A DNA stretch of 64,000 nucleotides from the NCBI GenBank assembly GCA_044892525.1, contig JBJFYX010000144.1, forward strand, positions 62,001-126,000, written 5' to 3'. Every line of letters begins with the position of its first letter. Position 1 is the first letter of the stretch. The notes under the pieces are model-generated. The model made no database searches. It was not told the DNA's origin and saw nothing but the letters and a program-made list of their open reading frames with translations. This document shows, one piece after another, positions 31,417-56,916 of the stretch. Source of the stretch: Schmidtea polychroa (lineage: Eukaryota). The position numbers were made by a program, and so were the translations under genes.

Positions 31417-31476
31417 GATACTGATATACATTTAGTTATTTTATACATATTTATATACATCGCTTTTTTGTTGGTT

Positions 31477-35003: not shown

Positions 35004-35092
35004 TTCTATAATTATATATATACATATATTCATTACTGGTACAGTTTCGTATTTTTATTTACAGTTATTTACATTGCTATTTTAGGTTATAT

Positions 35093-35452
35093 TTATTGGC
35101 TGGAAGAGTCGGCCTCTTGTCCGCCCTCTTCCCTGCTGGTTAACCATTCTGACCAGTCTTCTATCTCCTCTCGCTCCATCTCTTCCGCGATTCTTATTAA
35201 CTCCTCTTCTTGCACCTGGCTGTATCGTGATATTCGGTCTATCTCTCGCTGCATTTGTTCTATTTTTATTCGTTGGTCTTCGATTATTCTTACATAACTG
35301 AAGCCTTTATTTAAACTTTCGACTAAGCTTCTTTGTACAGCGAGTCCTTGTTCCTGTAAATTCGAAATCACTTGAGTTAACATTGCACATTGTTGTTTCC
35401 ACATCTCCTCGGTTGTCGTACTGTGATTTACTTCCTCGCCTATTCGTTCCAT
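35093..35452 (-). CDS. Accessory coiled-coil protein, about 119 aa
   Basis: ORF with coiled-coil composition; likely ATG at 35452. Confidence 0.6.
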   Translation of the reverse strand: MERIGEEVNHSTTTEEMWKQQCAMLTQVISNLQEQGLAVQRSLVESLNKGFSYVRIIEDQRIKIEQMQREIDRISRYSQVQEEELIRIAEEMEREEIEDWSEWLTSREEGGQEADSSSQ

Positions 35453-35620
35453 TCTTAATTTATATATACTTTTCAATCCTTATCTAATTTTATTTTCATA
35501 TTAATTATCCCCATCATTATATACTATTGATACCGCGCTTATATAAAAATATAGAATACTGTTATATAAATAAATATTACCTACTTACTTTTTACAATCT
35601 ATATACAGTCATAATCCTTT

Positions 35621-38600: not shown

Positions 38601-41600
38601 TCTCCGTAATGGTCTGTGATCGTGAATAATATAGGCCATTGACTTTTAACTACCCTGAGCAATGGGTGTGTTCTTTCTCGATTTGCATAGTTTTCTATCA
38701 TTGTTAGCAGACCTCCCAATATCTCAAAATCTAATCTGTCTTCTGCCCATCCGGGCATTTTAGCTTTCACTTCCTTTATGATTTTCTCGGCTTCTGATGG
38801 TTGTAACCCCAATCGGTTACCTGTTGGTTCGTTTATCTGCTGTAACATATTTATTCTATACGTTTGTGATCTTGTTGTTAATGTTCGCCCTTCCGGCTGG
38901 CTGGTGGCTGTTTTCGGTATTGGCTTACATCGTGCCACATTTACATATATTGGCCTCGTGAAGGGGTTGTTTACCAATCGTACTCTCACATTGGTTTCTC
39001 CGATGAATAGAATCTCATACGGACCTTTACCGTTTCGTTGTAATTTTTTGGTGGTTCCTGGGATTAATTCTGGTGTTTCGATCATCACCCAATCGCCTGT
39101 TTGAAACGTATGCTGTTTGACGTTTTTCTTTCTATCATGTAACTCTTTGTAACTTTCTTGATAAAATTTTATATTCAATCCTGCAGTTTCCCAGATTTCC
39201 TGCATTCTTTCCTTGAACTTGGTTACATAATCGTCTATTTCCATGTATTGTGATATTGGTGGCTGATATTCTAGATCCATTGGCATATTGCATTCTCTGC
39301 CGTACATCAACCTAAACGGACTCATCTTTGTGGACGCGTGAATCGACATTCTGTAAGCCATTAAACATAATTTTATATACTCGTCCCAGTCGCGTTGATG
39401 ACGATCGACATAATTTGATAACATTTGAATCAGTGTTCCATTGAATCTTTCTGTCATACCATTAGTTTGTGGATGGTACGGTGATGTTCTAAATTTTGCG
39501 ATCTTGAAGTAGTTGGTAACTTCGCTCATTATTTCGCTCATGAAATTTGTTCCTTGATCAGTTAATATCTGTTTTGGTGTTCCATATCGACAGCATATCT
39601 CCTCTACTAGTATTTTCGCGATTGTTCTTGCTTTCTGATCTGCCATTGCGAATGCTTCGGGGAATTTTGTCAAATAATCTGTGATTACCAATATATATAT
39701 ATTTCCTCTATCTGATTCTGGTAGTGGACCGACTACGTCCATTGATATCATTGTCATTGGTTCCGCTGGTACTGGCATTGGCTTTAATGGTGCCTTCCAT
39801 TTCGTTCCCGTGTTTTTTCTGGTCGCGCAAGTTATACAGTTCTTTACCCATTCCGTTACATCCTCGGTCAATGTAGGCCAGAAGTATTTTTGTTTCATTC
39901 GTGCCAACGTCTTTTTAGATGACATATGTCCTCCGAGTCTTCCGTCATGGTATTGTGTTAGCAGATCTTTACGTCTATTCTCGGGAATGCACATCAGTCT
40001 TTTCTCGCCATCCATTATCAATAACCAATCTTTCTCTATTATATATCGATGTCGATGTTTATCCATATGCTCCTTCAATTTTTGATCTTTCTCATATACC
40101 TCTGCTTTCCCTGTTTTCACATACTCAATGATTTGCTTCAACTCTGTATCCTCTTGTTGGTCTTTCCGTAATTGGCAAAAATCTAAATCTTCTGCTACCA
40201 TCAGACATATTCGTTGCATTTCGTGATCTACTAAATCTGGAAAGATAAATCTGGACATACAATCTGCATTGGCATTCGCTCTTCCCGCTTTGAATTTTAT
40301 GAACGGTGAATATTCTTGTAACTGCATTGCCCATCGCATCAATCTACTTGAAGCTTCTTTGTGTTGACCAAGCCATACTAGTGGTTGATGATCTGTTGTG
40401 ATACATATTTCGTGTCCCCACAACAAATATCGAAAATGTTTAATCGCTTGTATAATTGCTAACGCTTCTCTCTCGGTTACGGAATAGTTTTTCTCATGCT
40501 TTTTAAACGTTCTGCTGTAGTATCCAATCACTCTTTCTTTTCCTTCTTCATCCAGTTGTCCTAATATTGCTCCGGCTGCATATCCACTTGCATCTGTTGC
40601 TAATAAGAACGGTTTCTTGAAATCAGGATGTACTAGTATTGGGGCTTCAATTAATTTATCTCGCAATGTCTCAAATGCTTTTTGTTGTTCTGCACCCCAA
40701 ATAAATGAAATATCCTTTTTCACTAATTCCTGTATTGGTTTCGCAATACCTGCATAGTTTTTGATGAATTTTCGATAATATCCGCATAATCCGAGAAATT
40801 CTTGAACTTGGGTGACAGTTTTTGGTGCTGGACATGTTTTTATTTTTTCTATGTTTCTTGGATCTGGTTCTTTGCCTTTTGCTGACACTATTTGTCCTAA
40901 GAACGTAACCTTTTCTTTTGCCCAATCACATTTGGATGGTTTGAGTTTCAATTTCCATTGTCGTAATCGGATGAACACGTTTCTAATGTCTTCCAAATGT
41001 TGTTCGAATGTTGCTGAATATATTAATAAATCATCAATATATACCATACACTGCTTGATCCCGTGTGTGACAAAATTCATACATCTCTGGAATGATGCTG
41101 GGGCATTGGTCAGTCCGAACGGCATTTTCCTGAATTGGTATAGATCTCGGCCCAATGTGAATGCTGTTTTCTCTTTGTCTTCCTCCTTGACTTTGATCTG
41201 CCAATATCCGCTTTTCAGATCTAAAGATGTAAAATATGCGGCCCCCTGTAACATAAGTAACATCTCATTGATGTCTGGTAACGGGTATGTGTCTCTTTTT
41301 GTTACTGCATTTAGTTTCCGATAATCGATACAGAATCTCTGAGTACCGTCCTTTTTCTTCACCATGACTACTGGAAATTGCCATGGCGAACAACTTGGTT
41401 CGATCACTTGTGCATCTAGCATTTTTTGTACTTCTGCTTCGGCTATCTCTTTTTGCTTCTCTGCTAGTTTGTATGGACGTAGTGCGATTGGAGTTTCGTC
41501 TATTAATGGTATTGCGTGTAATGTAACATCGCATGCTCCCAAATCTAAATCCGAAATTGCGAATATATCTTTATATTCTATCAATAATTGTTGAAGTCTT

Positions 41601-44600
41601 TCCTTTTCCTTTTCCGTTAGCAATGTGCTATCGATTGTCCATAATTCGTCAGCTTTCGTTGTTTCATTGGTGATTTTTGGTAATTCGATGTCTATCATGG
41701 GTGTCAATCTACCCAATCTTTCATTTTCATATATGATTTTATCTTCTTCCTCGAAATTTGTGATGTTGATTGGTATTTCCCTGTCTTCCTTTATTGTTAT
41801 TATTTCTCTTGCTAATGGTAATTCTCGTCGTTTTTCGAATGATTTACTTGGCTCAAAAATGGCTTCTCCTTCCATTCCTGCATCCACTTTTATTTGACAT
41901 ATCATCTGGGATTTTGCTGGTACAATTATTTTCTCCGGACATCTGATTATTGCGTTCATTTTGCATATTCTACCCATTTTATCTTTTAGGCACATTGTTG
42001 TTAGATCTATTACTACTTCTTTGAACAATTCCGGCATTAAATCCGTTCCGATTATACATGGTTCACTCAGTTTGGGTATCACCGCTAGATACGTTTCAAT
42101 TTCATTATCTTGATATCGTAACGTAGTCCACCATCTTCCTACTACGTCTACGGTTTCTTTACTGCATGCAATAATATGGATAGTTGTTTGTTCGATGTCT
42201 TTCCAACATTTACTGGGTATTTGGTTTATTGCTATTGCTGATACATTTGCTCCGGTATCTATCATTGCGCTCGTCTCTTTCCCGTTGATTTGGATCATGA
42301 CCGTTACTGCTGCTCCTCCTGGTGAACTCATTACTGCTATTGTTCTGACGTCATCAGCTTGGTCTACGCTTTTCGTTCTTCGGGTCGGCATATAGTTCAT
42401 CCCTGGTTGACTTGGTAACTGTGGATACATATTTTGTGTCATGGTCAAAGCTGTTTGTTGTCCAACGATATCTGGTGGTATATAACTTCCGTTGGCTATC
42501 CAGGTATTTGTTTTTTCTTTCTCCCAATATGGCGCTGTTTCCATTGGCTTTTCATTCGGGTTTCTACTTGGATATGGGTATTTGTCATTCCCGTTGTCGT
42601 CATCATCACTATCGCTGCTGTTTGATCGATTTCTAAATCTGTCTAGGAATTTTGGTTTGTTCTTTTTTAGTTGTGCTCTCGTTGCTTCATCATACATGGT
42701 TTTCCGAAATCGTCTACCGACTTCCTCGTCAGTTCCTTTTATTTTCGTCAGTATTTTGATCAATCGTTTTATTCTATGTATGTCTTTAGAATGACCGTGC
42801 AACACCATTGTTTTTGCCAAGAATGGTAGAAAACCTACTATCAATTTCCAATTCACTTTCTTTTCTCGCTTGTATATATCGAAGCATGCCAACATTTGGG
42901 TCAATATTACCCTGACGATCTGAATAATTAAGATGATTCCCAATATTCCTGCCATCATTTGACCGAACACTAGAAATCTTCCCCACATTGCTTTCATCAT
43001 GTTTGACGTGGCTTGTTGAAAATGATCGGGTGACAATAATAGTTCGTAATTGGGGCCTGACTGGAAATTCGTTCCCCCAGTTATGGTAACCATATTCGAT
43101 AGAATGGATTCTCGCCTTGCTGGGAATAGTACGTTTAGTCGTGCTGTTTCTAAATCCTCTGGTGAGTACATACCTGCTTTTGACACATCAATTGGTTTGA
43201 AATCTTGCTCCGTTGCGAGTTCTATTAATCCAAACTTTTTAGGTTCTTGTACTTCGGTTTTTACCGGTAACATTATCCATTTCCCATCGGGTTTTTCATA
43301 TAACGGTCCGTATGCATTTGAACAGTTAAAGGTGTTCGGATAAAATCCAATTGGGTTCATAATTCTAGTGACGGGTTGAACGAATCTGTTTCGCCCTTTG
43401 TAGCTAATTTCTAATTCATTTGCACATTTCCCTGGTGGAATTGTGGGCTTTCTTGGCAGTCGCGCAAATGTCTTGGTACATGCATATGTATACATTACCT
43501 CTCCCACCATTCTACCAAAATGTCCATCCGGTAACGGGAGTGATGGCATTGTGTTATCTGGGTGTGTTATTGCGATGGCTAATTTTGTTTTTAGTATCTC
43601 TTTATTCAATGAACAGTCATTTTGTATAAGATCGTAATACACTTTTTGCATTGTCGTTTGTCCTCGATGAAATAAAAAGTCCATTTTGTTATTGGCGTAC
43701 AGGTACAATTTTACGTCCTCTGTTGCTACCTTTCCCACTGCTCGGTCTATTACTTGCCTTGACATGTAGATACCTGCGTAGTTCGTCCGATATACTATGC
43801 TGTCACATTTGGTGGTCTCTTTTTCTCTGATGAATCTCATACCGATATCTGGATCATCTGTAATTAATGCCGTTGGTGATTTTTGTGTTGTGAGTCTCTT
43901 TTCTTTGGGGGATGGTGGAACTGGTTTCCCATTTCGCATCCTTACGTTTCCATTCTCTTCATCGTCATCCTCGTTTTCGTAAATTTCTCCTTTTACTTCA
44001 TTGAATAGAGCACTTTTTAGCAATTGGAGTCGGCATTTTTGGGTGTTAGCTTCATATATTATAGTCGAAATTCCCGTTCTACACACGTTTTCCGTAGCTC
44101 TGCATGCTGGGTTGGTTTTCATTTGATAGTTGTTTGCGTCGAATTGTGCTTCGTATTCCTTCAACTCCACTGTGTAGGACTCAATTACTACTACTCCCGA
44201 GATCACTTCTCCTCTGATCGTATATGTGCCTCCGTTACATGATCCATCAGTTGATTTTACTCGTCCGGCTACATAGATACTTTCCGTCTTGATCATTCCG
44301 CTTTGTCCGTGTATTGTTACTCCATCCCTGATTCTCATCGCTCCGGTTCTAAAAAGCTCTTTACAGTCTTCCCGTTGTATAGGTACCATTTCTTTATCTA
44401 ATCCAGGTAATATAAGGGTTGAATATGAGTATTGTCCACAGTAGTATGCCAACACTTTCTTCGATACTACGCATTCTCTAGCTTGCGTTCTAATGAAATC
44501 TGATTCTTGGTATACGTGATAGGAGACTTTCTTTTTTACTATATCTAATTTATTCGGAAATGCCTGTCTACATTCCTCTATATCTCTCAGGGAGTATCTT

Positions 44601-45517
44601 TCTCCTATTATCGAATTGTCACAGTCGTAAATGGTAAATCCCGCGGCTCCACTGGTGCAGAGCATCCATATCATCATGGTCATCATTAGTGAATTAATCG
44701 ACGCTTTTCTGCTGGCTGGGTCTTTCAATGGCAATTCCCATTCCAGCTCGTTTAGCAATTTCTTCAACCGAATTTGCATTGATCTCTCTTGCTCGTTTTT
44801 TCGTGGCGCTTGTATGAGTCTTTTCCACCCACCGGCGCGGATAATATGTGGTTCGATTGTATTTTCAATGATTGTAACGGTCATTTCTACATGATTTGCG
44901 AATTGTTTGTTAGGTATTTTCCTTGCTGCTAATCCCATCAAATTGTACATTAGATACGTTAATACTACTAAATGATGTTCGTCGTCGTTTGCGTTTAAAG
45001 TTAATTGTTCAATTACTCTTCTTGTCTCTTCCCAATCGGTTTTAGTGGTTTTTGTCTTCTCTTTGATTAATTTCGGAATTATTCCGGATATTGTATTCCA
45101 TAGCTGTCTGGCATCTACGCTTGCTACTTTTCGTTGCCATAATCGTCGCAATTGTGGGTTCGTTATTATTAGCATATCTTTTACTAGCTCTCGTATCCAT
45201 TTTTCGCCTCTTTCGATTGTTGGCTGGGCCTCTTTTAGATCCCACACTATTTTATCCAGTTTCTCTAATCTGACTTGTCCTTGTTCTTGTTTCAGTTGTT
45301 CTCTGGTTTTGAATTCTGGTTTTTCTCCTTGCTTCCTAGGTCTTCCTTTTGCCCGTTTCTCCATCATTGTTCCAGTTTCTCTGGTTGTTTCGTAACTCGG
45401 GTTTCTCTCATTATCTGTTCTTGGCAATGAGCTATCGTTGTTTCTCAACCACTCATTCCATTCGTCTATTATTTTGTCAGTTTGACCTTCTGATATTGCT
45501 TTCGTTGGTCCTTTTTT
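35621..45517 (-). CDS. pol: Bcl2-Env-Pol-ankyrin polyprotein (3275 aa in the track; frame is open back to a -1 slippery site at 45511-45517)
   Basis: Uninterrupted ORF. Protease MIDTGANVS (about 42255); RT LDLKSGYWQI, MPFGLTNAP, YIDD (41030-41041); RNase H TDASG..TEREALA..TDHQPL; integrase HDGRLGGH..CITC, MDVVGP, TDQG, ERFN, GPY (about 39020). Confidence 0.97.
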   Translation of the reverse strand, partial: KKGPTKAISEGQTDKIIDEWNEWLRNNDSSLPRTDNERNPSYETTRETGTMMEKRAKGRPRKQGEKPEFKTREQLKQEQGQVRLEKLDKIVWDLKEAQPTIERGEKWIRELVKDMLIITNPQLRRLWQRKVASVDARQLWNTISGIIPKLIKEKTKTTKTDWEETRRVIEQLTLNANDDEHHLVVLTYLMYNLMGLAARKIPNKQFANHVEMTVTIIENTIEPHIIRAGGWKRLIQAPRKNEQERSMQIRLKKLLNELEWELPLKDPASRKASINSLMMTMMIWMLCTSGAAGFTIYDCDNSIIGERYSLRDIEECRQAFPNKLDIVKKKVSYHVYQESDFIRTQARECVVSKKVLAYYCGQYSYSTLILPGLDKEMVPIQREDCKELFRTGAMRIRDGVTIHGQSGMIKTESIYVAGRVKSTDGSCNGGTYTIRGEVISGVVVIESYTVELKEYEAQFDANNYQMKTNPACRATENVCRTGISTIIYEANTQKCRLQLLKSALFNEVKGEIYENEDDDEENGNVRMRNGKPVPPSPKEKRLTTQKSPTALITDDPDIGMRFIREKETTKCDSIVYRTNYAGIYMSRQVIDRAVGKVATEDVKLYLYANNKMDFLFHRGQTTMQKVYYDLIQNDCSLNKEILKTKLAIAITHPDNTMPSLPLPDGHFGRMVGEVMYTYACTKTFARLPRKPTIPPGKCANELEISYKGRNRFVQPVTRIMNPIGFYPNTFNCSNAYGPLYEKPDGKWIMLPVKTEVQEPKKFGLIELATEQDFKPIDVSKAGMYSPEDLETARLNVLFPARRESILSNMVTITGGTNFQSGPNYELLLSPDHFQQATSNMMKAMWGRFLVFGQMMAGILGIILIIQIVRVILTQMLACFDIYKREKKVNWKLIVGFLPFLAKTMVLHGHSKDIHRIKRLIKILTKIKGTDEEVGRRFRKTMYDEATRAQLKKNKPKFLDRFRNRSNSSDSDDDDNGNDKYPYPSRNPNEKPMETAPYWEKEKTNTWIANGSYIPPDIVGQQTALTMTQNMYPQLPSQPGMNYMPTRRTKSVDQADDVRTIAVMSSPGGAAVTVMIQINGKETSAMIDTGANVSAIAINQIPSKCWKDIEQTTIHIIACSKETVDVVGRWWTTLRYQDNEIETYLAVIPKLSEPCIIGTDLMPELFKEVVIDLTTMCLKDKMGRICKMNAIIRCPEKIIVPAKSQMICQIKVDAGMEGEAIFEPSKSFEKRRELPLAREIITIKEDREIPINITNFEEEDKIIYENERLGRLTPMIDIELPKITNETTKADELWTIDSTLLTEKEKERLQQLLIEYKDIFAISDLDLGACDVTLHAIPLIDETPIALRPYKLAEKQKEIAEAEVQKMLDAQVIEPSCSPWQFPVVMVKKKDGTQRFCIDYRKLNAVTKRDTYPLPDINEMLLMLQGAAYFTSLDLKSGYWQIKVKEEDKEKTAFTLGRDLYQFRKMPFGLTNAPASFQRCMNFVTHGIKQCMVYIDDLLIYSATFEQHLEDIRNVFIRLRQWKLKLKPSKCDWAKEKVTFLGQIVSAKGKEPDPRNIEKIKTCPAPKTVTQVQEFLGLCGYYRKFIKNYAGIAKPIQELVKKDISFIWGAEQQKAFETLRDKLIEAPILVHPDFKKPFLLATDASGYAAGAILGQLDEEGKERVIGYYSRTFKKHEKNYSVTEREALAIIQAIKHFRYLLWGHEICITTDHQPLVWLGQHKEASSRLMRWAMQLQEYSPFIKFKAGRANANADCMSRFIFPDLVDHEMQRICLMVAEDLDFCQLRKDQQEDTELKQIIEYVKTGKAEVYEKDQKLKEHMDKHRHRYIIEKDWLLIMDGEKRLMCIPENRRKDLLTQYHDGRLGGHMSSKKTLARMKQKYFWPTLTEDVTEWVKNCITCATRKNTGTKWKAPLKPMPVPAEPMTMISMDVVGPLPESDRGNIYILVITDYLTKFPEAFAMADQKARTIAKILVEEICCRYGTPKQILTDQGTNFMSEIMSEVTNYFKIAKFRTSPYHPQTNGMTERFNGTLIQMLSNYVDRHQRDWDEYIKLCLMAYRMSIHASTKMSPFRLMYGRECNMPMDLEYQPPISQYMEIDDYVTKFKERMQEIWETAGLNIKFYQESYKELHDRKKNVKQHTFQTGDWVMIETPELIPGTTKKLQRNGKGPYEILFIGETNVRVRLVNNPFTRPIYVNVARCKPIPKTATSQPEGRTLTTRSQTYRINMLQQINEPTGNRLGLQPSEAEKIIKEVKAKMPGWAEDRLDFEILGGLLTMIENYANRERTHPLLRVVKSQWPILFTITDHYGDTPLHKLLKVGSNEQILETIEAFRDCNISTDQENNQGCTPLMIAANRDKAKDIIIALLETGSKITTQDHNHKNALHHAIEGKSTEAFIILVDLLSYEDNREIGNMYDGLLTAIKEKLITITGILIAWRNPIKNDYMVDINETFTKGENTLMREAMRGHHLFEIPNQLLQRGIKFSNHKDEQLIRNRITNFEKAISQFTDKVQVKFWETVSVLYMMENMNNIRETYLSIIQVLTAEERINSSNKKKIKIKKITARESEKRVDQIIRYIATTSKPKIINSDQEIVIRKAKEVFFEEMQDLSDEAILAKITKTVHTYARDQTTNLDIEKIKTFIPLAFTLPTKDSRTPLQQAILAAKENRAITIIRILRDFGEESNAKNEQGETAMMYAAITNIHPKTLHILHQSGSRLNEISNEGNSTMDWATIQPNLEMIRFICKNATRTEVENICKNTSQFQWNTIRMNLEAMKLLLTWKIPQTNKYAININEFYENGENAMVKNTLTKGGTPKIIMIVLNREDLKFTQNLNEQKRIGKHRRIQLRELVKEWNRKRHVATGRKEFEFEAKLARNRVLTAYRRLLNDINVEDDILNDSGGDKDDKDDDNNEKGRNGNKEKEKSEENNQENNDASRKKEENNPGNRRKQEEKTNSGKQRVCLLFTNKEMETNMMIMILVLTMVEMITAQGGMRTIKEAKETENKDNKEEELKQEKKKQVQEQQWDLKEEWDLKERCILGRCMSRAYQRLVLKNEDAEPITEVGIQEAYQHRNGKKITKVKWKEVHLSKGGEIVITQLQPRKEHKVCISRLGPGENCLQYVTQQQPPKEYTVCILRNGPERECRRYPGKRGRKRKINDEKDEQGKRKKNSEKHQDNYVSEEEMEKIQKMAKEGMNEEIARIRGMMKGNGKDGNLKSTEAISTITNKGKAEIISVKQMMWISGIIITGAFLIITGGTIKIIKDRRHRGELEMARIRNFQHRVKRPSNIKQEQWVEACNAQRPPSSRI
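37100..38620 (-). other. Two ankyrin-repeat clusters fused after integrase
   Basis: DHYGDTPLH, NNQGCTPLMIAA, DHNHKNALHHA, KGENTL (38100-38620); DSRTPLQQA, NEQGETAMMYAA, NEGNSTMDWA, NGENAM (37100-37590). Confidence 0.85.
42800..44702 (-). other. env: Envelope glycoprotein domain, chuvirus-like / class III fusion type
   Basis: Signal segment LMMTMMIWMLCTSGAAG followed by FTIYDC..YSLRDIEEC..YQ..EC..YYCG; Cys-rich ectodomain; end WGRFLVFGQMMAGILGIILIIQIVRVIL. This pattern is typical of chuviral glycoproteins. Confidence 0.8.
44810..45210 (-). other. Bcl-2-like domain of the polyprotein
   Basis: BH2-like TIEPHIIRAGGWKRLI (compare Bcl-2 HLHTWIQDNGGWDAFV), preceded by a helical BH1-position segment RRVIEQLTLNANDDEHHLVVLTYLMYNL. 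Confidence 0.65.
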
Positions 45518-46542
45518 TGTCGTTGAAATTGTTCGTCAATTTCGGTTTCTGTCGTATTATCGGCAATTTCCTCTATGTTCAGCTTATTTGGTTGTTGATA
45601 GCTAGTTGATGGTTGGCTTGTTGTCCATATTTCAGCCCCTGTCGGCCATCTTACCAGAATTGGTGATCTTTCTCCAGCTCCTTCATCGCTGTCTTCCAAT
45701 ATAATTTCCTCGATTTCCTCGGTTTCATTCGATTTACTCGCCACTTTGTTAGGGCTTGGTGTACTCAAGCTACCTTTCGTAGGTTTACTGGATTTGCTCT
45801 TCTTTTTAATCGGTTTTCCCAATGTTTCTGCCATTGTCAATACATTGATCTCCCCCAATCTCATGGGTGTTATTCCGACATCTGCATTATCATCCAACGA
45901 TTTTCCGAATAGTTGTAGGTGAAATGGAGTTTCGTATGCTAATTTCTTTTTTAACTCTCTGATCTTTGTGGTTGGATGTACTTCTGTATCCTCAATGCTT
46001 TTGTCGGGATACTTGACTCGGATACGATACCTTTCCTGGGTATCTTGTGCCCATTCTTGGTTTCTCCATTTCCTAATAATTTGTTCTAGCTGTTCTGGGT
46101 ACCATTCGTTATATTGTCGGTATTCCTCAATCGCTTTCGCCATTTCTCTTAGATTGTGGATATTCTCTGATGTCTTTAGGATGATGTTAGCCAATGCTAT
46201 TACTTGACGTTTTTGATTTTTTGCTCCCGTTGCTAAGATATCACCTAATTGTTTATATCTTTCCTTCTCTTCTCGTTCTCGAGCTTCCATCGCTTCTTCG
46301 CTGTCCATATCGGCATATTCGCGTTCTTTCTTTCTCATCGCATGAATATGTCTAGTTTCCATTTCACTTTCTGACGTAACATCCGTTTCGCTTTCGTCGT
46401 CCGATATCGATTCTATTTCGTCCTCTTCGTATTTTGGAGGTTCATCTTCCTCTTCTTCTGATTCACTTTCTGTCTCACCAATGTCTGTTTCTACGAAAAT
46501 CCCTTTCCTGATTTCCCATTCTTTGTTTTCCGCATTCCACAT
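45469..46542 (-). CDS. ORF2, 357 aa: acidic tract plus ubiquitin-like domain; in frame with gag after a single TGA
   Basis: RYRIRVKYPDKSIEDTEVHPTTKIRELKKKL..HLQLFGKSLDDNADV follows the ubiquitin pattern (QIFVKT..TIENVKAKI..RLIFAGKQLEDGRTL). Confidence 0.8.
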   Translation of the reverse strand: MWNAENKEWEIRKGIFVETDIGETESESEEEEDEPPKYEEDEIESISDDESETDVTSESEMETRHIHAMRKKEREYADMDSEEAMEAREREEKERYKQLGDILATGAKNQKRQVIALANIILKTSENIHNLREMAKAIEEYRQYNEWYPEQLEQIIRKWRNQEWAQDTQERYRIRVKYPDKSIEDTEVHPTTKIRELKKKLAYETPFHLQLFGKSLDDNADVGITPMRLGEINVLTMAETLGKPIKKKSKSSKPTKGSLSTPSPNKVASKSNETEEIEEIILEDSDEGAGERSPILVRWPTGAEIWTTSQPSTSYQQPNKLNIEEIADNTTETEIDEQFQRQKKDQRKQYQKVKLTK

Positions 46543-46548
46543 CCTTTC

Positions 46549-49497
46549 TCATGGGGTTCGTCTGCAGGATCTAGTACTCAGTTTCTTTATTTTCCCTTGA
46601 AGCTCTTTTTCCTTTAGCCATTGTTGATGAATTTCAATTATCTCCACTGATTTTTGGTATAGCGTTTTCATCCTGTCCCGTATCTCTTTCTGGTATGTTA
46701 CATCTCTTGTTCGGAATTCGTCCATGGGTAATATTCTGATGATTTGATGATTATCCCACATTCCCATTTCGCTTAGCGAGGTGTCGTCTTCGGCCCGTAA
46801 TATTATTTTATCGTACATCAGGACTACATCATCTATCATCCCGTCGCTACTCTCGCTTCGTACTTTTTCCGTTACCTCTTGGTTTATCTTGGTTACTAAG
46901 TCATCCACCGTACTCTGATTACTCATCTTTATTCGTCGTTTCTCCTCGTTTGGTAACCATATGGTTATTTCTAATTTCTGCGGTTGCGTTTCTTTCAACC
47001 TTCCATATTTGTGGATCAAATTTATGGTTCTCCAATCACTCATTCGGAGCAGTTCTGTATCTCGCAGTCGGCTCATTAGTTCATGCATGTCTGCAGTTCG
47101 TCTTGTTATGAGCAAATCCCAGTTATCTTCAACTTGTTCTTGGATTTGTTTGATTAATTTATCTAGATTTCGTCGCAAGGTGCATTGTTTTATTTGTTCC
47201 AGCTTCAGCTTGATGTTAAAGTCATACTCGGCCTTGGCGTCTTTAGCCCATTCGTGAATATTTGCTGGTTGCTTCTCTTTATGCAATTTCAATATTTGAG
47301 TTTCTCCTGGCCAGATCAATGCATCTATTAGGTGCATGTCTGGTTTGATTTGTTCTCCTTGATATTGATACAGGTATTCTTTCTTTCTCGAGCTGCCCAA
47401 ATGTTCTCTTATCCAATCGAAAAGATCGTCTGTAACTGCATTTTTTATCCATATTCTCTCGAGTCCTTTACTCGTTCCGATTTTTATTACATAGCGTGTT
47501 GTCTCCGCTTGTTTCATTTTTTCCATATACTTCTTTATTATCGCTTTTTCCTCGTTTGGTATTAGATCTTTTTCGTTTCTTTCTAGTTTCATTATCTTTT
47601 GTATGAAGCGTCTGTATGGTATGATGTCAATGAATTCCTGGTTTCTTACCACCACTGGAAGTATTTCCTTTACTTGTTTTATCGCTTCTTCTCTTTCTTT
47701 TCTCAATTTCATTTCGATATTCTCGTCTTCGCTTTCGCTTGTCACGTCGCTTTCACTTTCATCCTCATCTGCTCCGATCTTTTCTCTTAGTTGGTCGATA
47801 TTTTCATTTAACTGTAACATTTCTCCACCAAGGCTACTCACGTAATCCTCATCGTCATCTGTTGACGACACCTTCTTTGTTGTCCTCATCATATTAATTC
47901 GCAAATTTCTCATTCTTGGTACTTTCTTTAACTTTTTGTTCTCGAATGTCGTTAGCTCCTCTGAGTCTAATTCTTGTATCATATCATGATTTAGATGATT
48001 AATCCGTTTTTTATTTTTGTTATTTTCCGCTTCTGCTTCTGTTTTTGTTTTCTCATTTTCTCTTTCGATTTTATCTTTTATCTTTTTCCAAAATATTTTC
48101 TGAATTCTCTGATTTCCTTTTAGCGGTGTTGTTGAATTTTCCTTTTTTGCTGCTGTAATTGTTTCTTTCGGTTTCTCGGGTTCGCTCATAGGTACAACTC
48201 TTGGATTTTTACCGTAATTGTAACAATATTGCTCTTTTATCTCCCTTACCATTCTCATCATATTTATTCGTAATGGTTGTTCTTGTCGTTGCTGAATTCG
48301 CTCTCTTTTTATCCTTTCTTCTTCAGCTTGTAGTCTTTGCCATTCTTGTGCATGTTGTTGCACTTCATAATTATTAAGATTCTCGGTGCTCCTCATCATG
48401 CGTATATTCTGGGTTTGTTGTGCTACTGGTTCTTGTCTCGGTCTCATCATTTGTTGCATCATCTGTTTCATTTGTGAAATTTCTTGCATCACGTTCATTT
48501 GCTTTCCCTCACTAGGATTACTTTGTCGTTGCGGATTTGATGCATAGTTATTATTTCGCTGTGGTGGTCGTTGTTGTTGGCTCCTTTCTCGACAGTCTCT
48601 TGAGATATGACCTGGTTGACCGCAGTTAAAACATCCTCTCAATTGGCATATATTTTCCGTGTGTCCTCGTCGTCCACACCTATTGCAATTTGCGTTTCGG
48701 TAACAATCTCTATCCCAATGTCCTGGTTTACCGCATATTCGGCATTGTTTGTTATCGTTCATATTTCGTCGATTATTAAAGTTGTTCCCATTGTTCGAGT
48801 TGTTGCGTTCACTGTTATTCCCATTTGATCGTCCTTGTGGTGGTTTGAAGATTTGATGTGCTCCTGGTATAAACTGATTCATCTTGGGTTCATGATTGTT
48901 GTTATCTCCGTTTTCCGTTTTCACCGTTGCTGTAGCGATTCTTCCCTCCTCTTGCATGACATTCATTTGTGCTGGGAGGTGTAGTTCGCATCTTGTGGCC
49001 CAATCTATGGCTTCTTCTAGTGTTTTACACATTTGACATCCCACCGAGGCCCTTACCTCTTCTCGGCGCAGTCCTTCTATGAAGTAACCAATTAGATTTT
49101 CCTCCGGCAAGTTTCCGTTCATGGCCTTTTTTGCCAATCTTCGCAATTCACTCGCATATAACGTTATGGATTCATTTGCTCTTTGTTTTCTACTTGCCAG
49201 TTCACCTAACGCTTGATTTATCGGTTTGCTGGCTCCGAAGGTTTTCCTCAAAAATGTTTTGATGCTTTCCCAATTGTCTAATTTCGTATTTCTTTCTTTT
49301 GCTTCTAGATACACTTCGAGTGCGCTATCGCACAAAAACAGAGGCATTCGTTTACTAATTGCTTCCGCTGTCCATCCGCACACATCGATATAGACTTCAA
49401 AATTTGTTATGAACGTTGCCAACTTGTTCGCATTCCCGTTAAACGGTTCGCCTCTAAATTTTTCTTTATACTCGTCGGTTTTTACCACATTCATCAT
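46549..49497 (-). CDS. gag: Gag, 982 aa: capsid, three CCHC knuckles, C-terminal extension with two ubiquitin-like domains
   Basis: FNGNANKLATFITNFE..W; KQRANESITLYASELRRLA..FIEGL; CRICGKPGHWDRDC, CNRCGRRGHTENIC, CFNCGQPGHISRDC; UBL-like segments at about 47280-47500 and 46725-46980. Confidence 0.93.
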   Translation of the reverse strand: MMNVVKTDEYKEKFRGEPFNGNANKLATFITNFEVYIDVCGWTAEAISKRMPLFLCDSALEVYLEAKERNTKLDNWESIKTFLRKTFGASKPINQALGELASRKQRANESITLYASELRRLAKKAMNGNLPEENLIGYFIEGLRREEVRASVGCQMCKTLEEAIDWATRCELHLPAQMNVMQEEGRIATATVKTENGDNNNHEPKMNQFIPGAHQIFKPPQGRSNGNNSERNNSNNGNNFNNRRNMNDNKQCRICGKPGHWDRDCYRNANCNRCGRRGHTENICQLRGCFNCGQPGHISRDCRERSQQQRPPQRNNNYASNPQRQSNPSEGKQMNVMQEISQMKQMMQQMMRPRQEPVAQQTQNIRMMRSTENLNNYEVQQHAQEWQRLQAEEERIKRERIQQRQEQPLRINMMRMVREIKEQYCYNYGKNPRVVPMSEPEKPKETITAAKKENSTTPLKGNQRIQKIFWKKIKDKIERENEKTKTEAEAENNKNKKRINHLNHDMIQELDSEELTTFENKKLKKVPRMRNLRINMMRTTKKVSSTDDDEDYVSSLGGEMLQLNENIDQLREKIGADEDESESDVTSESEDENIEMKLRKEREEAIKQVKEILPVVVRNQEFIDIIPYRRFIQKIMKLERNEKDLIPNEEKAIIKKYMEKMKQAETTRYVIKIGTSKGLERIWIKNAVTDDLFDWIREHLGSSRKKEYLYQYQGEQIKPDMHLIDALIWPGETQILKLHKEKQPANIHEWAKDAKAEYDFNIKLKLEQIKQCTLRRNLDKLIKQIQEQVEDNWDLLITRRTADMHELMSRLRDTELLRMSDWRTINLIHKYGRLKETQPQKLEITIWLPNEEKRRIKMSNQSTVDDLVTKINQEVTEKVRSESSDGMIDDVVLMYDKIILRAEDDTSLSEMGMWDNHQIIRILPMDEFRTRDVTYQKEIRDRMKTLYQKSVEIIEIHQQWLKEKELQGKIKKLSTRSCRRTP

Positions 49498-50883
49498 GAC
49501 TGGTTCTTGTAACTCTATTGTTTCTTTTAAATTTTCCAGCGATGTCGCTAAATTATAGACGGATAATTCTTCTGTTGACCCGGTTAGGTTGTTTGTTATA
49601 TCGGATAGGCTTTCTCTACTTCTAGATCGACTGGGCGTATGTCCGGCTGTGGGGTTTTCTTGATCGTATATCGGTGTTTTGTGGGGTCTTTTTGCTCCTT
49701 GTGATATTCCTCTCTGCTGCCTAAATGATCGTCCTCTTTTGAGTTGATCTAATTCGTCTCCTGAAAATAATACGTCTCCTGGCTTACTTGAAGATCTAAG
49801 GTTGGGTTTATCCGTGATTTTCTTTTTACTCTTTTCTGTCTTTCCACGTGGGTTTTTCTACGGTTAGCGGCTGCTGAATTGGTCGAGTTCGGTTCTGATA
49901 GTGTTTTCTTCGAGGAATATTCTGCGTAATTTCTCGGCTGATTTCCGGAGGAGATATCTGAGTCCTTGATTGACTTCTGCTAGTACGTCGATGCTAAGTA
50001 TTTCGATAATTCCGTCGTAGATAAAGATGTCGTTGTCGTCCTCCGTATTCGGATTGATTTGTTTTTTCCTTTGTGCGGGTTCTGAATTGCTTTTCCTGGG
50101 TTGTTTGTATATTCTCTAGATTCCTTTTGAGCTGGTTCTGAATTGACTTGGTTGGATAGATATCTACAATGAAAAAATGATATCGTGTTGCATTTGCTTA
50201 CACGAATCAATCATTCCTTTTTACCATATTCAAGCACAGACACCGTTTTTGGGCCTCTGTTATACTTCTCTTCATTTCCCCTCATACACTTCTTCGTGGA
50301 ATATAATTACCCATCAACCCATATTTTTCGTCGATTTTAAATTATCTATTTGGGGTAGTAACAATTATCTATATAGTCGTATAAATTATCTATAGTTAGC
50401 ATTTATAATATCGATAGGTCGTTGTCAGTTACTGCTTATTACCCCCCATATTTTCCTTAATCCTTTTACGCGGTTCCGCTATTTTATTTACTCTTTCGTC
50501 TCTGTTTCCTTTTACTCGGTTCTACTCTGGAACCAAAAACAAAATTCGTTTAACCGGTTTAAACCCAAAAAAAATTCTGTAGAACTTTGTCTACCTATCT
50601 GGGATCCCCTTTAATTAATTAATTATTTCCTCTTTGGTTCATCATCTATTCATACTTATTCATTGTTTCTATTATCTCCTGATTCATTTTCCTTTTCCGT
50701 TTCTCCTTCTTCACTAAAAGAATTTTACTATCATCTTTTACGAGCTCGTTTAATCCTTTCTAAATTCAAATTCCATATTTCAAACTCAATTTGCTTCTAG
50801 CTAGCTTTAATATTCTATCTCACTAGTAATTTAAATGTTATCAACTTGTAGCTTAAATGCTATCTCACTATTACTTTAGGCCT

Positions 50884-51180
50884 TTACGACTGGCTGGCAC
50901 TATTCAACAGCTCAATCTTCCTCTCCTGACCGGTTGGACTATTCAACAACTCGATCTTACGACTGGCTGGCACTATTCAACAGCTCAATCTTCTTCTCCT
51001 GACCGGTTGGACTATTCAACAACTCGATCTTACGACTGGCTGGCACTATTCAACAGCTCAATCTTCTTCTCCTGACCGGTTGGACTATTCAACAACTCGG
51101 CCTTATTATCCCCGACTGGCTGGACTTTTCACAGCTCAGTTTCAATTTCCCTGACCGGCTGGACTTTTCGACAGCTCGGC
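50884..51180. repeat. 73-bp tandem repeat x3 plus a degenerate fourth unit in the element leader
   Basis: Units start at 50884, 50957 and 51030; each unit consists of two related about 36-bp halves. Confidence 0.9.
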
Positions 51181-51772
51181 CCTAATGTCTCTAAACTCTG
51201 CATGCTTCCGTTCCTTTTCTGTCTTTATTCTATACTGTCATCTTCCTATTTTTACTTTTATTTGTCGACCTAATCTGTACCGCTTTGGAATGTTTCCCCT
51301 TTTCCCCTTGCTCAAAACACAAAACGATCGCATTGATCCATTTCTACATTGGTATGGTGATCAGCCATACCGCAGAAACTTTTCAATATTCGCGATGGTA
51401 CCTCGCTTTACATCTCTTACTCGGGGTGATCGGTTGTCCCTCCCCAAACGGTTTCCAACATCGTACCTCCCGAAGGTGGCTCGGTTTATTCCCCCTTTAA
51501 CCCTATGACGGGACTAGTTCCACTTTAAATAATCATTTTAAATTTTAAAATGCCCTTTCTTCATGGTGAAAATTATAACAACACAAATCAATTTATAACT
51601 TCGTATAATGAAATGAATACACAAAAAGGATTTATTAGTTATTTCCTCCACATTACAGATAATATATGCTATCATTATAAAACATTACCGAATTAAATCA
51701 GAACAAAAATATCAAAATGTTTAGTCTAATTGTTAATCATCCAATTTCCTTCACCGAGCGACGATCGCGTAC

Positions 51773-52252
51773 CTAACTGAAATAGATTGTGTGCTTCTCT
51801 TTTATTACACATGTGCACATAGAACAACGGATTAAACTGGCGGCGCATTCGTCACAATGGCTAAGGTGCCCACAAGGTAGAATCAGAGTTTTGACAGGTC
51901 GCATCTTGCAAATGTTACAAGTTCTCAAGGCCGCTGCTTTCTCTACTATTGATGTTCGTATCCGCTGAGACAGAGTTTTGACTTGTTCGCGTATCCTCAC
52001 ATATTCGATGTTCAGAGCGGGGTCGTCGAGTCGTTGCTGCATCCATTGGTAATGGGTAGACAAGTCGGTATCGGTATTTGTTGATCCTAATCTGTCGGTT
52101 AGAAAGTTTTGTTTGGATATCAGCGGTGCGTTGTGGCTTTGTTGTTCTAACAGTTCTATTTGTTTCAGTTTTTCCTTTAATGTTTTTATTGAATCATTTT
52201 CTATTTCGATGAACCGGCTTAGCTGTTGTAGATGTTGTCTAGCTTCCGACAT
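51773..52252 (-). CDS. Coiled-coil + C-terminal IAP/MDM2-type RING protein, 159 aa
   Basis: CNICKMRPVKTLILPCGHLSHCDECAASLIRCSMCTCVIKEKHTIYFS ending at the stop; no BIR domain. Confidence 0.85.
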   Translation of the reverse strand: MSEARQHLQQLSRFIEIENDSIKTLKEKLKQIELLEQQSHNAPLISKQNFLTDRLGSTNTDTDLSTHYQWMQQRLDDPALNIEYVRIREQVKTLSQRIRTSIVEKAAALRTCNICKMRPVKTLILPCGHLSHCDECAASLIRCSMCTCVIKEKHTIYFS

Positions 52253-52690
52253 ATCTAAATGAATGTGTTGTTATTATTTTGTTCCTGCTGGTATTAAAAT
52301 TAATATTATTATGTTTGTATTTAATATTCGTTGACTTTTATGCGTTAGTGTTTTAACTTTTGTATTTTGTTCGGTCTTTGAAATTCCCCTTTCATCTTTT
52401 CGCTTTAATCACTTACTTTCTTTCGTCCCCCCTTTTATTTTAACCAGTTAATATTAACTACAATAACTAATTCCCGTTTTCTTTTCTCATCATGCCTCAT
52501 CACATTCACTCCAACTCATTTAGGTTCGTTTCATTCACCACATGCTCTATTTCAAACTCAGACAGTTCGTATCATTTCATTGCACTATAATTCGTTTCGG
52601 CCCCGATTCCATTTCTATCATAATTAATTAGATTGTTATGCTAACACATCATACCACAGAAATAGACAATCAAATAAATCAATATTCAAT

Positions 52691-52708
52691 ATCCCGGCTG
52701 AGCCCCCA
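52691..52708 (-). other. Primer binding site, tRNA-Pro-like
   Basis: TGGGGGCTCAGCCGGGAT versus the established MLV PBS-Pro TGGGGGCTCGTCCGGGAT (16/18); lies 7 nt inside the 5' LTR boundary. Confidence 0.8.
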
Positions 52709-52715
52709 AAAATCA

Positions 52716-55700
52716 TGTTGGCATATGTGGGGAAGAGAAAAATTACGCACGCGCAACCTTCACTCATACAAGGCGTCATCGTTCCGCTCAGGCACTTCCC
52801 ATACATACACCAGATGATCAAATGCATATTCCCACGTATGAGCCCGTGGTGATGTTCCACGTTGGTGCTGCTCACACGGGTCGGAAAAGGTTAGCAGGTG
52901 AGCCTCTGCCTTAAGACTACTCCTAACCCTGTCTCGGTTCGGGTTCCATGGCGCCGTAGAAGGTCTTACCCATTCCTCTACACATCATTCGGTCCTTCCC
53001 TGGTCCAAGGGGACGACTCTGTAGTGCTACCTATATCTGATACCGTCCTATTGTTCACTTTTAATCCCATATCATGCATGCCAAAAACAATCACCGAGAG
53101 ACAATAAAAATTATATTACATCCACAACAATAATTACATTTATAACAAGGAAAAAGGGGCTGTCACAAAAATAAATGTTCAATATTCACAAATACTCAAG
53201 TCCGCTTCCGAATCTTGCAGAATCAAGGCAATGGAAATCTGTCAGTCAAAGGACTCTCCATCAGCAAGCATCTCGTCGATGTCGACCGGCAATCGTTGGT
53301 TAGAGACGTATTTGATGCCCTCTGCGGGAATTACACGGAAAATTTCCTTCGTTGGAATTGAATGGCTGGAAGAGATTTCTTTTATGGTGGATTGGGCTAC
53401 CGATAGTGACGCTTCGAGTGCGGCCATCGCATCTCGGCGTTTTTTATTCTTCTCGGCTCGAGTTGGCCGTTTCCGTTTGCGAGTAGACGGAGGGTTTTCT
53501 ATGTTCGCGGTGCCGATTGGTGCTACCAAAATTGGAGCCAAGATGGGATCGGTAGGTCCACCGACCAAGGGTTGATGACTCGATAAGGTTGGAGCCGGGA
53601 CGGGCGGCAGATAGGTACCATGCCCTTGGCAGCTTGTTGAAGTTGATTGGGAGGCCTGATGGTGAGGGGGAAGACATTGGTTTTCTCGATGACGGGAAAT
53701 TCTCGGACCCGTTTGGCCAATTCTGCCTCCGTATATACTTTATGGAGGGCTTCCGATTGTGCTTTGATCGTGAGCCGCTGGCAACGGCTTTCCTCCAGCA
53801 GGCTGTCCCTGCAATGCTCTAATCGGAGAATTTTCTTGCGTTCCTCTTTCATTTGTGGCGGGGAGAACCACGTGCCTTCGTAGAGATCAATTCTCTTTTT
53901 CAATGCCCCGATATATAGGTGGAGCTGCGCGATATCTGCGTTTTTATCGGCGCAGGAGAGACATGGGCGAAGATTTTTTCCAGAGCTGGTAGAGGTATTC
54001 ATCTAAAGAGTTTACAGAATTTTTTATTATCAATTTTACAAAATTTATTGGCTAGGATTTTGTTCCTATTTTACATACGAGGTTCACCATTTTCGCAATC
54101 AAACCATTCAGTGGTGATTCCAACACCCAAATTATCAGTCGGTGCCCCCATTCATCCAATTTCAAGCATTCAAATTCATCCCCTCAACCATCAACACCTA
54201 ACGAGAAGAAAACGAAAATTCTAGACATAATTTATTTGTCATCATTTTACAATCGGTACGTGTTATGAGTTTGACTATTCCCCTTTTCGCACTTGATCAG
54301 TCTAGTGCTGACAATACTAACCCCTTTATTTTATTTATCATTATCTGATGTTTGCGATTTTACTCCTCATTACTACGTTCTACACAACTAAACCGAGTCG
54401 TATTATAAAAGAAAAATTCGACATCCAATGGACCTCGTTATGTTATACTAAAGTAGTTCAAGTAGAGAAAAATAAAATAGAAAAAGAAAAAAAATTAACA
54501 GCAGAACATCTTTGGTTCACCTTTAGTTTAGTTTATGATGGTTTGATTTTATTTAAATTTTTGCCGTGAGGTTGTCATGACGACGTTACGCAATATGTAG
54601 TTGTGTTAAAAGATCGTCTTTCGTTTACATGTGGCATGTAATTCAACATGTGACAATGCATGCTAAAGTAATGTTAGTTGTCCCTAGCTTATGAATCGGT
54701 TTTGGTGACGTGTTTGCTTCGAATGGTAGTTTAAGAGTGGGTGTCTGCCTTACGCACGTGATCTCTTTCTTTCGCCTGTGCACACAGTATCGTTTTCTCG
54801 ATTAGCTTCCTCGTTGTTACGTCACGATTATGTCACAGAACATGTTAGGACTCAGAACAATTTGTCGTCTACTGAGAAAGAATTTCCAGGTAGTATGTCA
54901 ATGAGGCGGATTATCAAGATTCAGTTGTCTGGGAGATTGATTAGAAGTATCCACCCAATCATTACGCGACAATTCACTAGCGGGTCAGAACTGATGATTT
55001 ACTCTAGTCGTTATCAACTCTTAGACATCTCTCTATCAACGCATTCACTAAACCTATGGCAGAGACGATTATCGCTCCCTCTCTTCGGCGGATTTTCCTC
55101 AGTCATACAATCCGGTGAATAATAATCTGTCTGAAATTAGTTTGACAGTTTCCGATAAATTCGACTGCGGTTTCTCTAGCATCGATCGTAAATATTCCGA
55201 TAATTTCTCGTGATTTGTTTGTTTTATTCTCAGAAAATCTAGGCTTATCAGTGGCCGTATAACCAACAATCTAACTCAAAAGTACACTGACTATGGGTTT
55301 CGTCGTAAATGTCCTGGCGATGTGGATTCTAGAAGATCTCGGGCTCTATGACATTCTCTGCGAACAACATTGGATTTTTTACGCAGCTATAGCTCCCCAA
55401 TCACCAGATATTCTCGTGTCAATTTCCCGAGGGATATACGACATAGACTCTAACTTTCCAATGCGATTGATGGCGACTGGATGTAATGTTAAAAGACGTT
55501 GATTCGACAATTTCCTGGAGTTTCTCATGATTTCATCTTCGCGACTACTCTTTTAAGAAGTGTATTTTCGACGATAGCGGTGGTCGATCGCACTCGATGA
55601 AGGAAATTTCACTCTTCAGCTATACTTCGAGTCACGGAGTTTCCTCACCTCTCATGACCCACCCAAGAACGGCACTCATTTCTGCCGCCGTCCTTGCACC

Positions 55701-56916
55701 GTCATGGGAGACAATCAACTCCTCTCCTCAAGCAATTCAAAATCAACTCCGACATTAATGGAAAAATTTTGTAAAACAAATAAAATGAATAAATCAGATT
55801 TACCCGGCGACCCCACCATCTGGGTTCCAAGCATGATGTCTTCCGAGCCATTCAGATGCATGTCCCTCCGTACTGGACAATTTCCTCAAATCTTCTTCAA
55901 CCTCGAAAATCGACTGATATCTTACTCCGTCGCAACGCATACTCGCAAACCCTTTCACAACGTATTTTCGCTCTGCCGCATCATGCCTGAAGGTCCCAAA
56001 TAGTACAGTGGCCGGTACCATGAAGAAAAAGGCTGCTGTTCATTTCAAATTGAATTTATTGAATAAAATTTATTCTACTTTTCATTATTTTCAACATTTT
56101 TACAGCAAATAACTATTCATAATATCAATCGAATGTATACCTTTGAGTTTAAAACTGGATCGAATAGAATAATAAAGTCGTCTAAGTTCTCGGTACTTTC
56201 CGTAGGCTCTTAACCAGTAGTCTAAAATGGCTTATCGGCTGTAAGTGGTTTTGTAGGATTGCTTCGTAAACGAGTTCTAGTAAGTTCTAAGTGGTCCTGA
56301 AGTCCTGTAGAGTTTCGGGTTAGAATGATGATAATATTTTAAATAAACTTTTACCTGTAGAGTTTCGGGTTAGAATGATACTCTACAGATTTTTGTCGCT
56401 CTTTATATATTATTTTCTGTCCAATCAGGACGCGACCCGTTTGTATTTTTACTCTTTATTATTATTTTTATGTTTTTATCATCGTATATTAAATTTTTTT
56501 AATGGCTTGGCTTATTCTTATTATTATTTTATTTATTTTTTCTTATTTTTATTATTTTCTCTTCTATTTTTCTGCGGACTTATTGTTATTTTATTGTAAT
56601 ATTATTTTTTGTTTTAATTAGACTTAAAATGGTTTATTTTTTATTTATTTCTTAAATTTCTCGTTTATTTGTTGTCACTTTTTTACTTATTCTATTTCTA
56701 TTTTATCCGTTGTGTGTTTTAACTCGTTTTATTTCTAAATCTTAAGGGATTTATTGGGTTTTATTCAGTTTGTTTTACCTATTCTTATTCTCTTATTGAT
56801 TTTTTATCGTTCCTTCCTATTTACTAGTGAGATTTTTATATTTTTATCTTATTTATTATTCGAGGTTTACTTTTCTATTCGCTCCAGTTTTCTCCACTCT
56901 GAAATTTAGCCCAACA
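52716..56916 (-). repeat. 5' LTR (4201 bp)
   Basis: By eye, differs from the 3' LTR by about 9 substitutions and one G in a homopolymer (G6 at 27247-27252 versus G5 at 53666-53670). Confidence 0.97.
53242..54002 (-). pseudogene. 5' LTR copy of the LTR ORF, frameshifted by 1 nt
   Basis: Split into 159-aa and 108-aa ORFs by G5 versus G6; could be a homopolymer assembly error. Confidence 0.6.

Follow-up and report, generated by a model that had tools for sequence, protein, structure and literature searches.

What are the ubiquitin-like sequences lodged in the polyprotein of a large planarian retroelement, and what might they do for it? The question is raised by a stretch of 64,000 nucleotides of the Schmidtea polychroa genome (assembly GCA_044892525.1, contig JBJFYX010000144.1, positions 62,001 to 126,000 of the forward strand), hereafter the window, which carries on its minus strand a long terminal repeat (LTR) element of the Burro type. 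This assignment is made by size, open reading frame (ORF) layout, and cargo, set against the review description of these elements (PMC6431247) rather than the named Burro-1 to -4 sequences. An earlier, sequence-only reading of the window had seen three ubiquitin-like (UBL) domains built into two proteins, Gag and "ORF2", and had proposed that they recruit the endosomal sorting complexes required for transport (ESCRT) or the proteasome, or act as decoys.

The ubiquitin-like fold holds for the third domain, where it is confidently predicted, and is likely for the other two, while the real unit is larger. It is a module consisting of a helical domain of ~70 residues and a UBL domain, and three copies of it follow the zinc knuckles of Gag in the window polyprotein. 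That the helical segment belongs to the repeat had been overlooked, as had the fact that one SUMO-like motif is already known in Burro (PMC6431247). The module anatomy set out below is very probably right. Regarding function, the reading that we favor, at a rough probability of 0.35, is that the module would serve as a Gag-borne nuclear or chromatin adaptor, ahead of a signaling decoy, a spacer, or a late domain.

A helix–UBL module repeated within one polyprotein

The element and the parts of its module region are as follows.

26297..56916, minus strand: whole Burro-type LTR element, 30.6 kb, with TG...CA ends and a 4-bp target-site duplication
46552..49857, minus strand: first polyprotein piece, with Gag capsid, three CCHC knuckles, linkers, and modules 1 and 2 (Pfam Retrotrans_gag, E 4.8e-10; zf-CCHC, E 4.5e-12; translation)
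47502..47714, minus strand: H1, likely the helical half of module 1 and the most diverged (position ahead of UBL1)
47278..47499, minus strand: UBL1, likely ubiquitin-like domain (family profile, conserved positions, Atlas neighbors)
46980..47180, minus strand: H2, likely the helical half of module 2, earlier read as "death-effector-like" (last helix within the profile match)
46726..46977, minus strand: UBL2, likely ubiquitin-like domain whose loop behind helix 1 is longer (family profile)
46290..46529, minus strand: acidic linker with a PPKY (PPxY-type) motif at 46429-46440 (copy comparison)
46038..46274, minus strand: H3, four-helix domain of module 3 (predicted model; profile 15.1 bits, 0 of 1000 shuffles)
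45830..46035, minus strand: UBL3, beta-grasp domain (predicted model; family profile against the PDB), followed by a lysine-rich stretch
45329..45358, minus strand: AT-hook-like motif, past the last module and ahead of the Bcl-2-like domain (present in 9 of 12 lineages and in all 20 own-family copies)

In the window copy this region is interrupted twice.

46549..46551, minus strand: premature in-frame TGA (among 10 loci, only L001-L003 have it)
45469..45540, minus strand: frameshift region between the second and third polyprotein pieces (reading frames; comparison with other copies)

The placement of the UBLs in separate Gag and ORF2 products does not survive comparison with other copies. Both breaks are common to three of the 10 best DNA matches in the host genome (G000), namely, the window and two identical copies, and amount to damage in these; in six of the seven others a single frame spans UBL1-3 and the Bcl-2-like domain, the remaining copy being broken elsewhere. 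Because the breaks are confined to a few copies and other copies run in one frame, "Gag" and "ORF2" are fragments of one Gag-Env-Pol protein, and programmed read-through or frameshifting at their borders was rejected on the same ground. A protein search, with 136 of 847 candidates scored, returned many in frames of 4,724-4,817 amino acids, against 4,873 in Burro (PMC6431247). The occurrence of the domains in further copies, which had been named beforehand as a check, is borne out: UBL1-3 recur, and the whole region is open in a single frame in 20 of 20 copies, these having been picked for long frames.

The ubiquitin-like domains

The predicted beta-grasp fold that the earlier note had named as its test was obtained with confidence for UBL3, whose model is a beta-beta-alpha-beta-beta grasp superimposable on ubiquitin and SUMO. 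A family profile matched ubiquitin and ISG15 chains in the PDB, with single-domain E values down to 2.4e-06; UBL3 alone, searched with phmmer against the PDB, gave 0 matches. A profile built from 21 units of relatives gives the window units 43.4 bits (module 3), 13.7 bits (module 2), and 8.8 bits (module 1), values equalled by 0, 0, and 1 of 1000 shuffles. Taken alone, the UBL halves are equalled by 0, 1, and 11 of 1000 shuffles; for the helical halves the counts are 0, 210, and 56, in the same order. Among 496 segments tiled over six element ORFs, the three best non-overlapping matches are the three modules, with the UBL1 unit third. Detection grew with the profile, which found only UBL3 when built from eight units, UBL2 as well with 17, and UBL1 as well with 21.

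On this evidence UBL2 can be called ubiquitin-like with high confidence, and UBL1, the least sure of the three, probably is too. UBL1 keeps equivalents of ubiquitin G47, D53, L56, and D58 together with the family P63, and its Atlas neighbors are ubiquitin-clan clusters, under the 0.9 mark. A single-sequence AlphaFold model of UBL1-UBL2 (predicted local distance difference test, pLDDT, of 38) has the beta-beta-alpha starts alone visible; a fold search with it gave coiled coils only and was discarded as meaningless. Four weak phmmer matches of UBL1-UBL2 to BTB proteins in the PDB (E 0.095 or worse) were likewise rejected, and among proteins of 502-2000 amino acids 0 of 1608 candidates proved to be UBL1-UBL2 homologs. 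A different kind of folded domain, not ubiquitin-like and similar to the module only by accident, is a doubtful account of UBL1 and perhaps of UBL2. Such a view could draw on the absence of a beta-grasp match for UBL1 in Pfam and PDB sequence searches and of a confident model, on the 11 shuffles that equal its half, and on the lack of direct pairwise similarity of UBL1 and UBL2 to ubiquitin, but it has to contend with the whole-unit score of module 1 and its third rank in the element, the conserved positions and ubiquitin-clan neighbors of UBL1, and the tandem modules of relatives.

C-terminal di-glycine is absent from the three window units and from the 21 relatives' units, in keeping with the earlier suggestion that these domains are not conjugated. 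The residues aligned to ubiquitin L8/I44 are G/Q, P/M, and P/Q in the three window units; among the 21 relatives' units, L8 is found in 1, I44 in 2, and V70 in 0, the alignment around position 70 being less sure. Core positions are kept (L43 in 15 of 21, L56 in 18 of 21), as are an acidic D-D-E at ubiquitin positions 52-54 (15, 15, and 19 of 21) and, at the start of helix 1, basic residues in positions 22, 24, and 27. This basic helix start and acidic loop may have a structural role; ubiquitin itself contains an internal K27-D52 salt bridge.

The helical domain

H3 is predicted to form four helices (residues 2-15, 22-35, 39-55, and 61-75; pLDDT 80-90), whereas a death fold has six. The faint likeness of H2 to a death-effector domain (DED) that had been noted earlier finds no support: Pfam DED matched neither the element nor nine members of the helical-domain alignment, and the homologous H3 models as four helices. 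A host DED in G000 did not appear above the cut-off either. By eye, the helical domain resembles TFIIS N-terminal (TFIIS-N) domains, the fold also adopted by the integrase-binding domain of LEDGF. Pfam Med26 gave no match for it. The helical stretch of P0022, chosen as the most TFIIS-like, found no PDB match better than E 0.79, the helical-domain profile matched only designed helical proteins besides chance matches, and an Atlas search returned nothing usable; the fold-search lists of the module model are dominated by its UBL half.

As a separate observation, IWS1-like genes bearing a TFIIS-N domain have undergone a large tandem expansion on C2 of G000, at ~164-172.5 Mb (L034, L035, L037-L044; uninterrupted frames of 450-520 amino acids), and more short TFIIS-N genes lie on C1 and C2.

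Occurrence in relatives and constraint

Relatives were located through Env or Bcl-2 and not through the UBL, although the units of five of the eight lineages also served as profile seeds. Eight related lineages, two of them close, carry the module in one or two copies after the Gag knuckles. It is present in all three proteins P0001-P0003, in eight of eight G000 loci fetched for Env (L011-L018, two families), in 11 of 13 G000 loci fetched for Bcl-2 (L019-L029), and in the one metagenome locus (L032); the two loci without it, L030 and L031, had been fetched for short Bcl-2 frames. The two-module layout was confirmed in L011 and L014, and the number per element ranges from one to three. A search of 1.84 billion representative proteins yielded 1057 matches, of which 150 were listed. 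The full module occurs in 12 of 153 proteins examined; all eight full-module proteins with a Gag, CCHC, or Env Pfam match are retroelement proteins, four others are without such context, and no cellular protein with the whole module is found among the matches listed (150 of 1057).

P0001, P0003, and P0052 keep the module where the Bcl-2 GGW motif is absent; the module therefore varies less among relatives than that cargo does and has the look of a core-cycle component. Its fixed place across a lineage of enveloped gypsy-like elements, with greater constancy than the Bcl-2 and ankyrin cargo, gives it a likely role in the core life cycle.

The upstream copies mostly sit on longer branches (5.5, 4.1, and 2.6 for window units 1, 2, and 3; 4.0 versus 0.7 in P0002, 2.5 versus 1.2 in P0022, and 2.6 versus 0.9 in P0006), the end branches of L014 being not clearly so; most of the tree of 24 units lacks resolution, with 3 of 21 inner branches starred, and branch lengths alone were used. 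Modules 1 and 2 probably arose by tandem duplication and then diverged under continued constraint. Pairwise counts over 21 copies, 20 of them selected for long open frames, give ratios of nonsynonymous to synonymous differences (pN/pS) of 0.062, 0.038, and 0.089 for UBL1, UBL2, and UBL3 and 0.13, 0.055, and 0.053 for H1, H2, and H3. For reference, the capsid stands at 0.038, Env at 0.082, and reverse transcriptase (RT) at 0.014, and the Q-rich, acidic, and third linkers at 0.28, 0.14, and 0.13. All regions are under purifying selection, with pN/pS far below 1, and even the diverged UBLs are kept up as working domains.

What the module may do

A Gag-borne nuclear adaptor is favored because an AT-hook-like motif follows the last module and because LEDGF/p75 and murine leukemia virus (MLV) p12 offer precedents. 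The motif lies between the last module and Env in nine of the 12 lineages whose sequence reaches far enough, three shorter proteins that end too early being left out of the count, and in 20 of 20 own-family copies; past the Env start, no such motif occurs in 9,825 residues of four long polyproteins. According to the available part of PMC4176367, LEDGF/p75 uses AT-hooks together with a helical integrase-binding domain to tether the integrase of human immunodeficiency virus, and p12 of MLV connects incoming pre-integration complexes with chromosomes in mitosis. The likeness is one of function only, to the pairing of AT-hooks with a helical protein-binding domain in LEDGF and to a Gag-derived tether in p12. 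No sequence relationship of either to the module was seen, LEDGF is a host protein with a PWWP domain, and neither is known to have a UBL. In the proposed mechanism, the element's protease or signal peptidase would free the module block from Env, and the block would enter the nucleus, perhaps by way of the lysine-rich stretch behind UBL3. The helix–UBL part would then offer a non-conjugated docking surface to a protein of the host or of the element, with the AT-hook gripping AT-rich DNA, the two together tethering Gag or the incoming particle to host chromatin in a manner akin to p12 or LEDGF/p75. A bolder version is a long shot: a self-encoded tether in Gag in which a TFIIS-N-like four-helix domain, a UBL, and an AT-hook would anchor the pre-integration complex to host chromatin or to the machinery of transcription elongation, the extra diverged modules adding host partners. 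If true, it would constitute an element-borne counterpart of host integration cofactors.

Several observations weigh against the adaptor. The AT-hook is missing in three of the 12 lineages (L011, L014, and P0001), which are young and multi-copy or long-framed, and the motif could equally be a nuclear localization signal or an RNA-binding patch. No family can be assigned to the helical domain, and its resemblance to TFIIS-N does not rise above controls: compared by profile with 11 domains of the host (G000), in register across 48 columns, it scored 12.25, below reversed (13.4, 14.8) and block-shuffled (up to 19.1) controls. Pairwise, the three units are not significantly alike (51-108 of 1000 shuffles), and modules 1 and 2 are tied weakly to the family profile. 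The pN/pS intervals of UBL3 and H1 overlap those of the acidic and post-UBL3 linkers, and the copies behind these ratios were chosen for their long open frames.

Three other roles have to be weighed against the same evidence. The UBLs might use non-canonical surfaces to bind the ubiquitin or SUMO machinery of the host and, together with the TRAF-like, RING, Bcl-2-like, and ankyrin cargo that the element encodes, damp cell-death or innate signaling. Interference with apoptosis and ubiquitination has been suggested for Burro (PMC6431247), and the charged positions kept by relatives (D-D-E at 52-54; basic 22, 24, and 27) would suit such surfaces; these charges may equally be internal salt bridges, however, and P0001 and P0003 have the module without the Bcl-2 GGW motif or ankyrins, which leaves a decoy as a tentative and somewhat unlikely account. 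A purely structural part is unlikely as well. As a folded spacer or a layer akin to matrix, with no specific host partner, the module would pack Gag, join it to the pre-Env membrane anchor, or aid polyprotein folding or cutting. This would fit the module's universal presence, fixed position, and variable copy number of one to three, and also the conservation of the core (L43, L56) but not of the surface patch; yet diverged upstream copies as constrained as the capsid (UBL2, 0.038 versus 0.038) exceed what a spacer needs, and the AT-hook is left unexplained.

Rather improbable is a built-in late domain, in which the UBLs would act like Gag-fused ubiquitin and, with the PPKY motif between modules 2 and 3, recruit ESCRT for enveloped budding. 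The UBLs do lie on the cytosolic side, between the capsid and the Env signal helix, PPKY is present in 17 of 20 copies, full modules of known context occur in Env-bearing or Gag-side proteins, and fused ubiquitin can stand in for a late domain, as the accessible part of PMC2958808 reports. By the same account, budding by Gag-fused ubiquitin depends on L8 and I44; these are not kept in the window units, and simple ESCRT mimicry is therefore unlikely, while the other families scanned have no PPxY or PT/SAP motif at the equivalent place. The sequence-only interpretation thus stands as regards ubiquitin-like, non-conjugatable domains and falls as regards two ORFs, and its death-effector fold is unsupported; recruitment of ESCRT or the proteasome by ubiquitin mimicry is weakened, with Q, M, and Q at the I44 position of the three units, I in only 2 of 21 relatives' units, no L8/I44 patch, and no di-glycine.

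Two sets of motifs may be recorded alongside. A YPQL motif lies between the Env membrane helix and the protease (window 42982-42300), where P0001 and P0002 have LYPxnL- and PPxY-type motifs; late domains in the Env tail are possible. A Y-x-L-R-S/N motif recurs after the integrase in P0001-P0003 and before Gag in L011 and L019, and presumably recalls the chromatin-binding sequence of foamy virus Gag.

Relation to known elements

The element shares with Burro/GYPSM1 planarian elements a size of ~30 kb, multi-kb LTRs, an in-frame Env before the protease, a three-CCHC Gag, a Ubi2/SUMO-like motif before a BCL2-like domain, ankyrin repeats, and MATH/TRAF (PMC6431247). The giant ORF likewise runs Gag, Env, and protease-RT-RNase H-integrase, interrupted in the window copy. 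The review, of 2019, gives the Ubi2/SUMO-like motif (PF11976) no function and describes one UBL motif, without helical partner, repeat number, or AT-hook, in contrast to the three modules found here; moreover, the TRAF/MATH protein is here a separate downstream ORF, not within ORF1 or upstream (PMC6431247). BURRO1 is expressed and PIWI-silenced in planarians, according to the accessible part of PMC8532177. GAG-ENV-POL errantiviruses of Platyhelminthes have the same gene order and a gB-type Env, and the Env stretch of Smed_errantivirus_2 is by eye nearly the same as that of the comparison family L011/L012 (available part of the 2026 survey PMC13524379). The word "ubiquitin" has 0 occurrences in the available text of that paper and the seven supplements word-searched, in which the Gag-Env interval is without annotation.

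A ubiquitin fold inside a viral polyprotein is also seen in Gag-fused ubiquitin, an artificial late domain (available part of PMC2958808), and in the ubiquitin inserts of pestivirus polyproteins (BFVD matches). Those are near-intact ubiquitin with its hydrophobic patch, whereas the Burro domains are ~20% identical to ubiquitin, without patch or di-glycine. Pestivirus inserts carry a di-glycine cut site. No description of the lineage-wide helix-UBL-AT-hook, three-copy arrangement was found in the literature searched; Grohme 2018 or Repbase may annotate more. The gain is that a published motif is defined as half of a conserved two-domain module, with domain boundaries for direct tests; should the module be only a spacer or decoy, this would be an annotation-level refinement of a known element.

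Other features of the element

The LTRs (26297-30498 and 52716-56916) are 4.2 kb each and 99.76% identical. Along the element, Pfam matches run in the order Gag capsid, CCHC knuckles, a weak Bcl-2, fusion glycoprotein, protease, RT, RNase H, integrase, and ankyrin repeats; a BIR domain, a further trait of Burro/GYPSM1 elements, was not matched in the 11 element ORFs scanned. The remaining coding features are these.

44800..45150, minus strand: Bcl-2-like domain, with a helix resembling a signal peptide between it and Env (weak Pfam Bcl-2 match, E 0.078; pre-Env stretches of relatives)
35624..44650, minus strand: remaining polyprotein, with fusion glycoprotein, protease, RT, RNase H, integrase, ankyrin repeats, and C-terminal membrane protein (Pfam Monjiviricetes_fusion, E 6.9e-72; RVP, RVT_1, RT_RNaseH, rve; Ank_2, E 2.6e-16; hydrophobic stretches)
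33615..35054, minus strand: separate downstream TRAF-like ORF with RING, zinc fingers, and MATH (Pfam MATH_2, E 8.6e-24; zf-C3HC4, E 9.9e-05)
51773..52270, minus strand: upstream RING-finger ORF (Pfam zf-C3HC4_3, E 2.7e-08)

The pre-Env helix of the window copy falls under the hydropathy cut-off used. Contigs of a presumed RNA run cover all 30 element bins and are uninformative on transcription, and no Env relatives appeared in the viral contigs searched. Many dispersed frames of 150-180 amino acids with Bcl-2 matches, often with an internal TAG (e.g., L030 and L031), occur in G000 and are possibly stand-alone Bcl-2 genes of other mobile elements. P0001, P0003, and P0052 contain more than one retropepsin domain each, in up to three or four stretches, and P0002 bears its ankyrin repeats ahead of RT instead of behind the integrase.

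A second predicted membrane protein closes the window polyprotein (35624-36700; hydrophobic residues 2972-2991 and 3232-3259 of the third piece), and the polyprotein ends of P0001-P0003 resemble it. Downstream, six ORFs at 30757-35479 encode the TRAF-like protein and several products, coiled-coil or small and hydrophobic, that match no Pfam family. Each LTR contains a 253-amino-acid ORF (26823-27584 and 53242-54002), intact in the 3′ LTR but divided by a frameshift in its 5′ counterpart, and the leader between the RING ORF and Gag holds three to four tandem 73-nt repeats (50884-51181).

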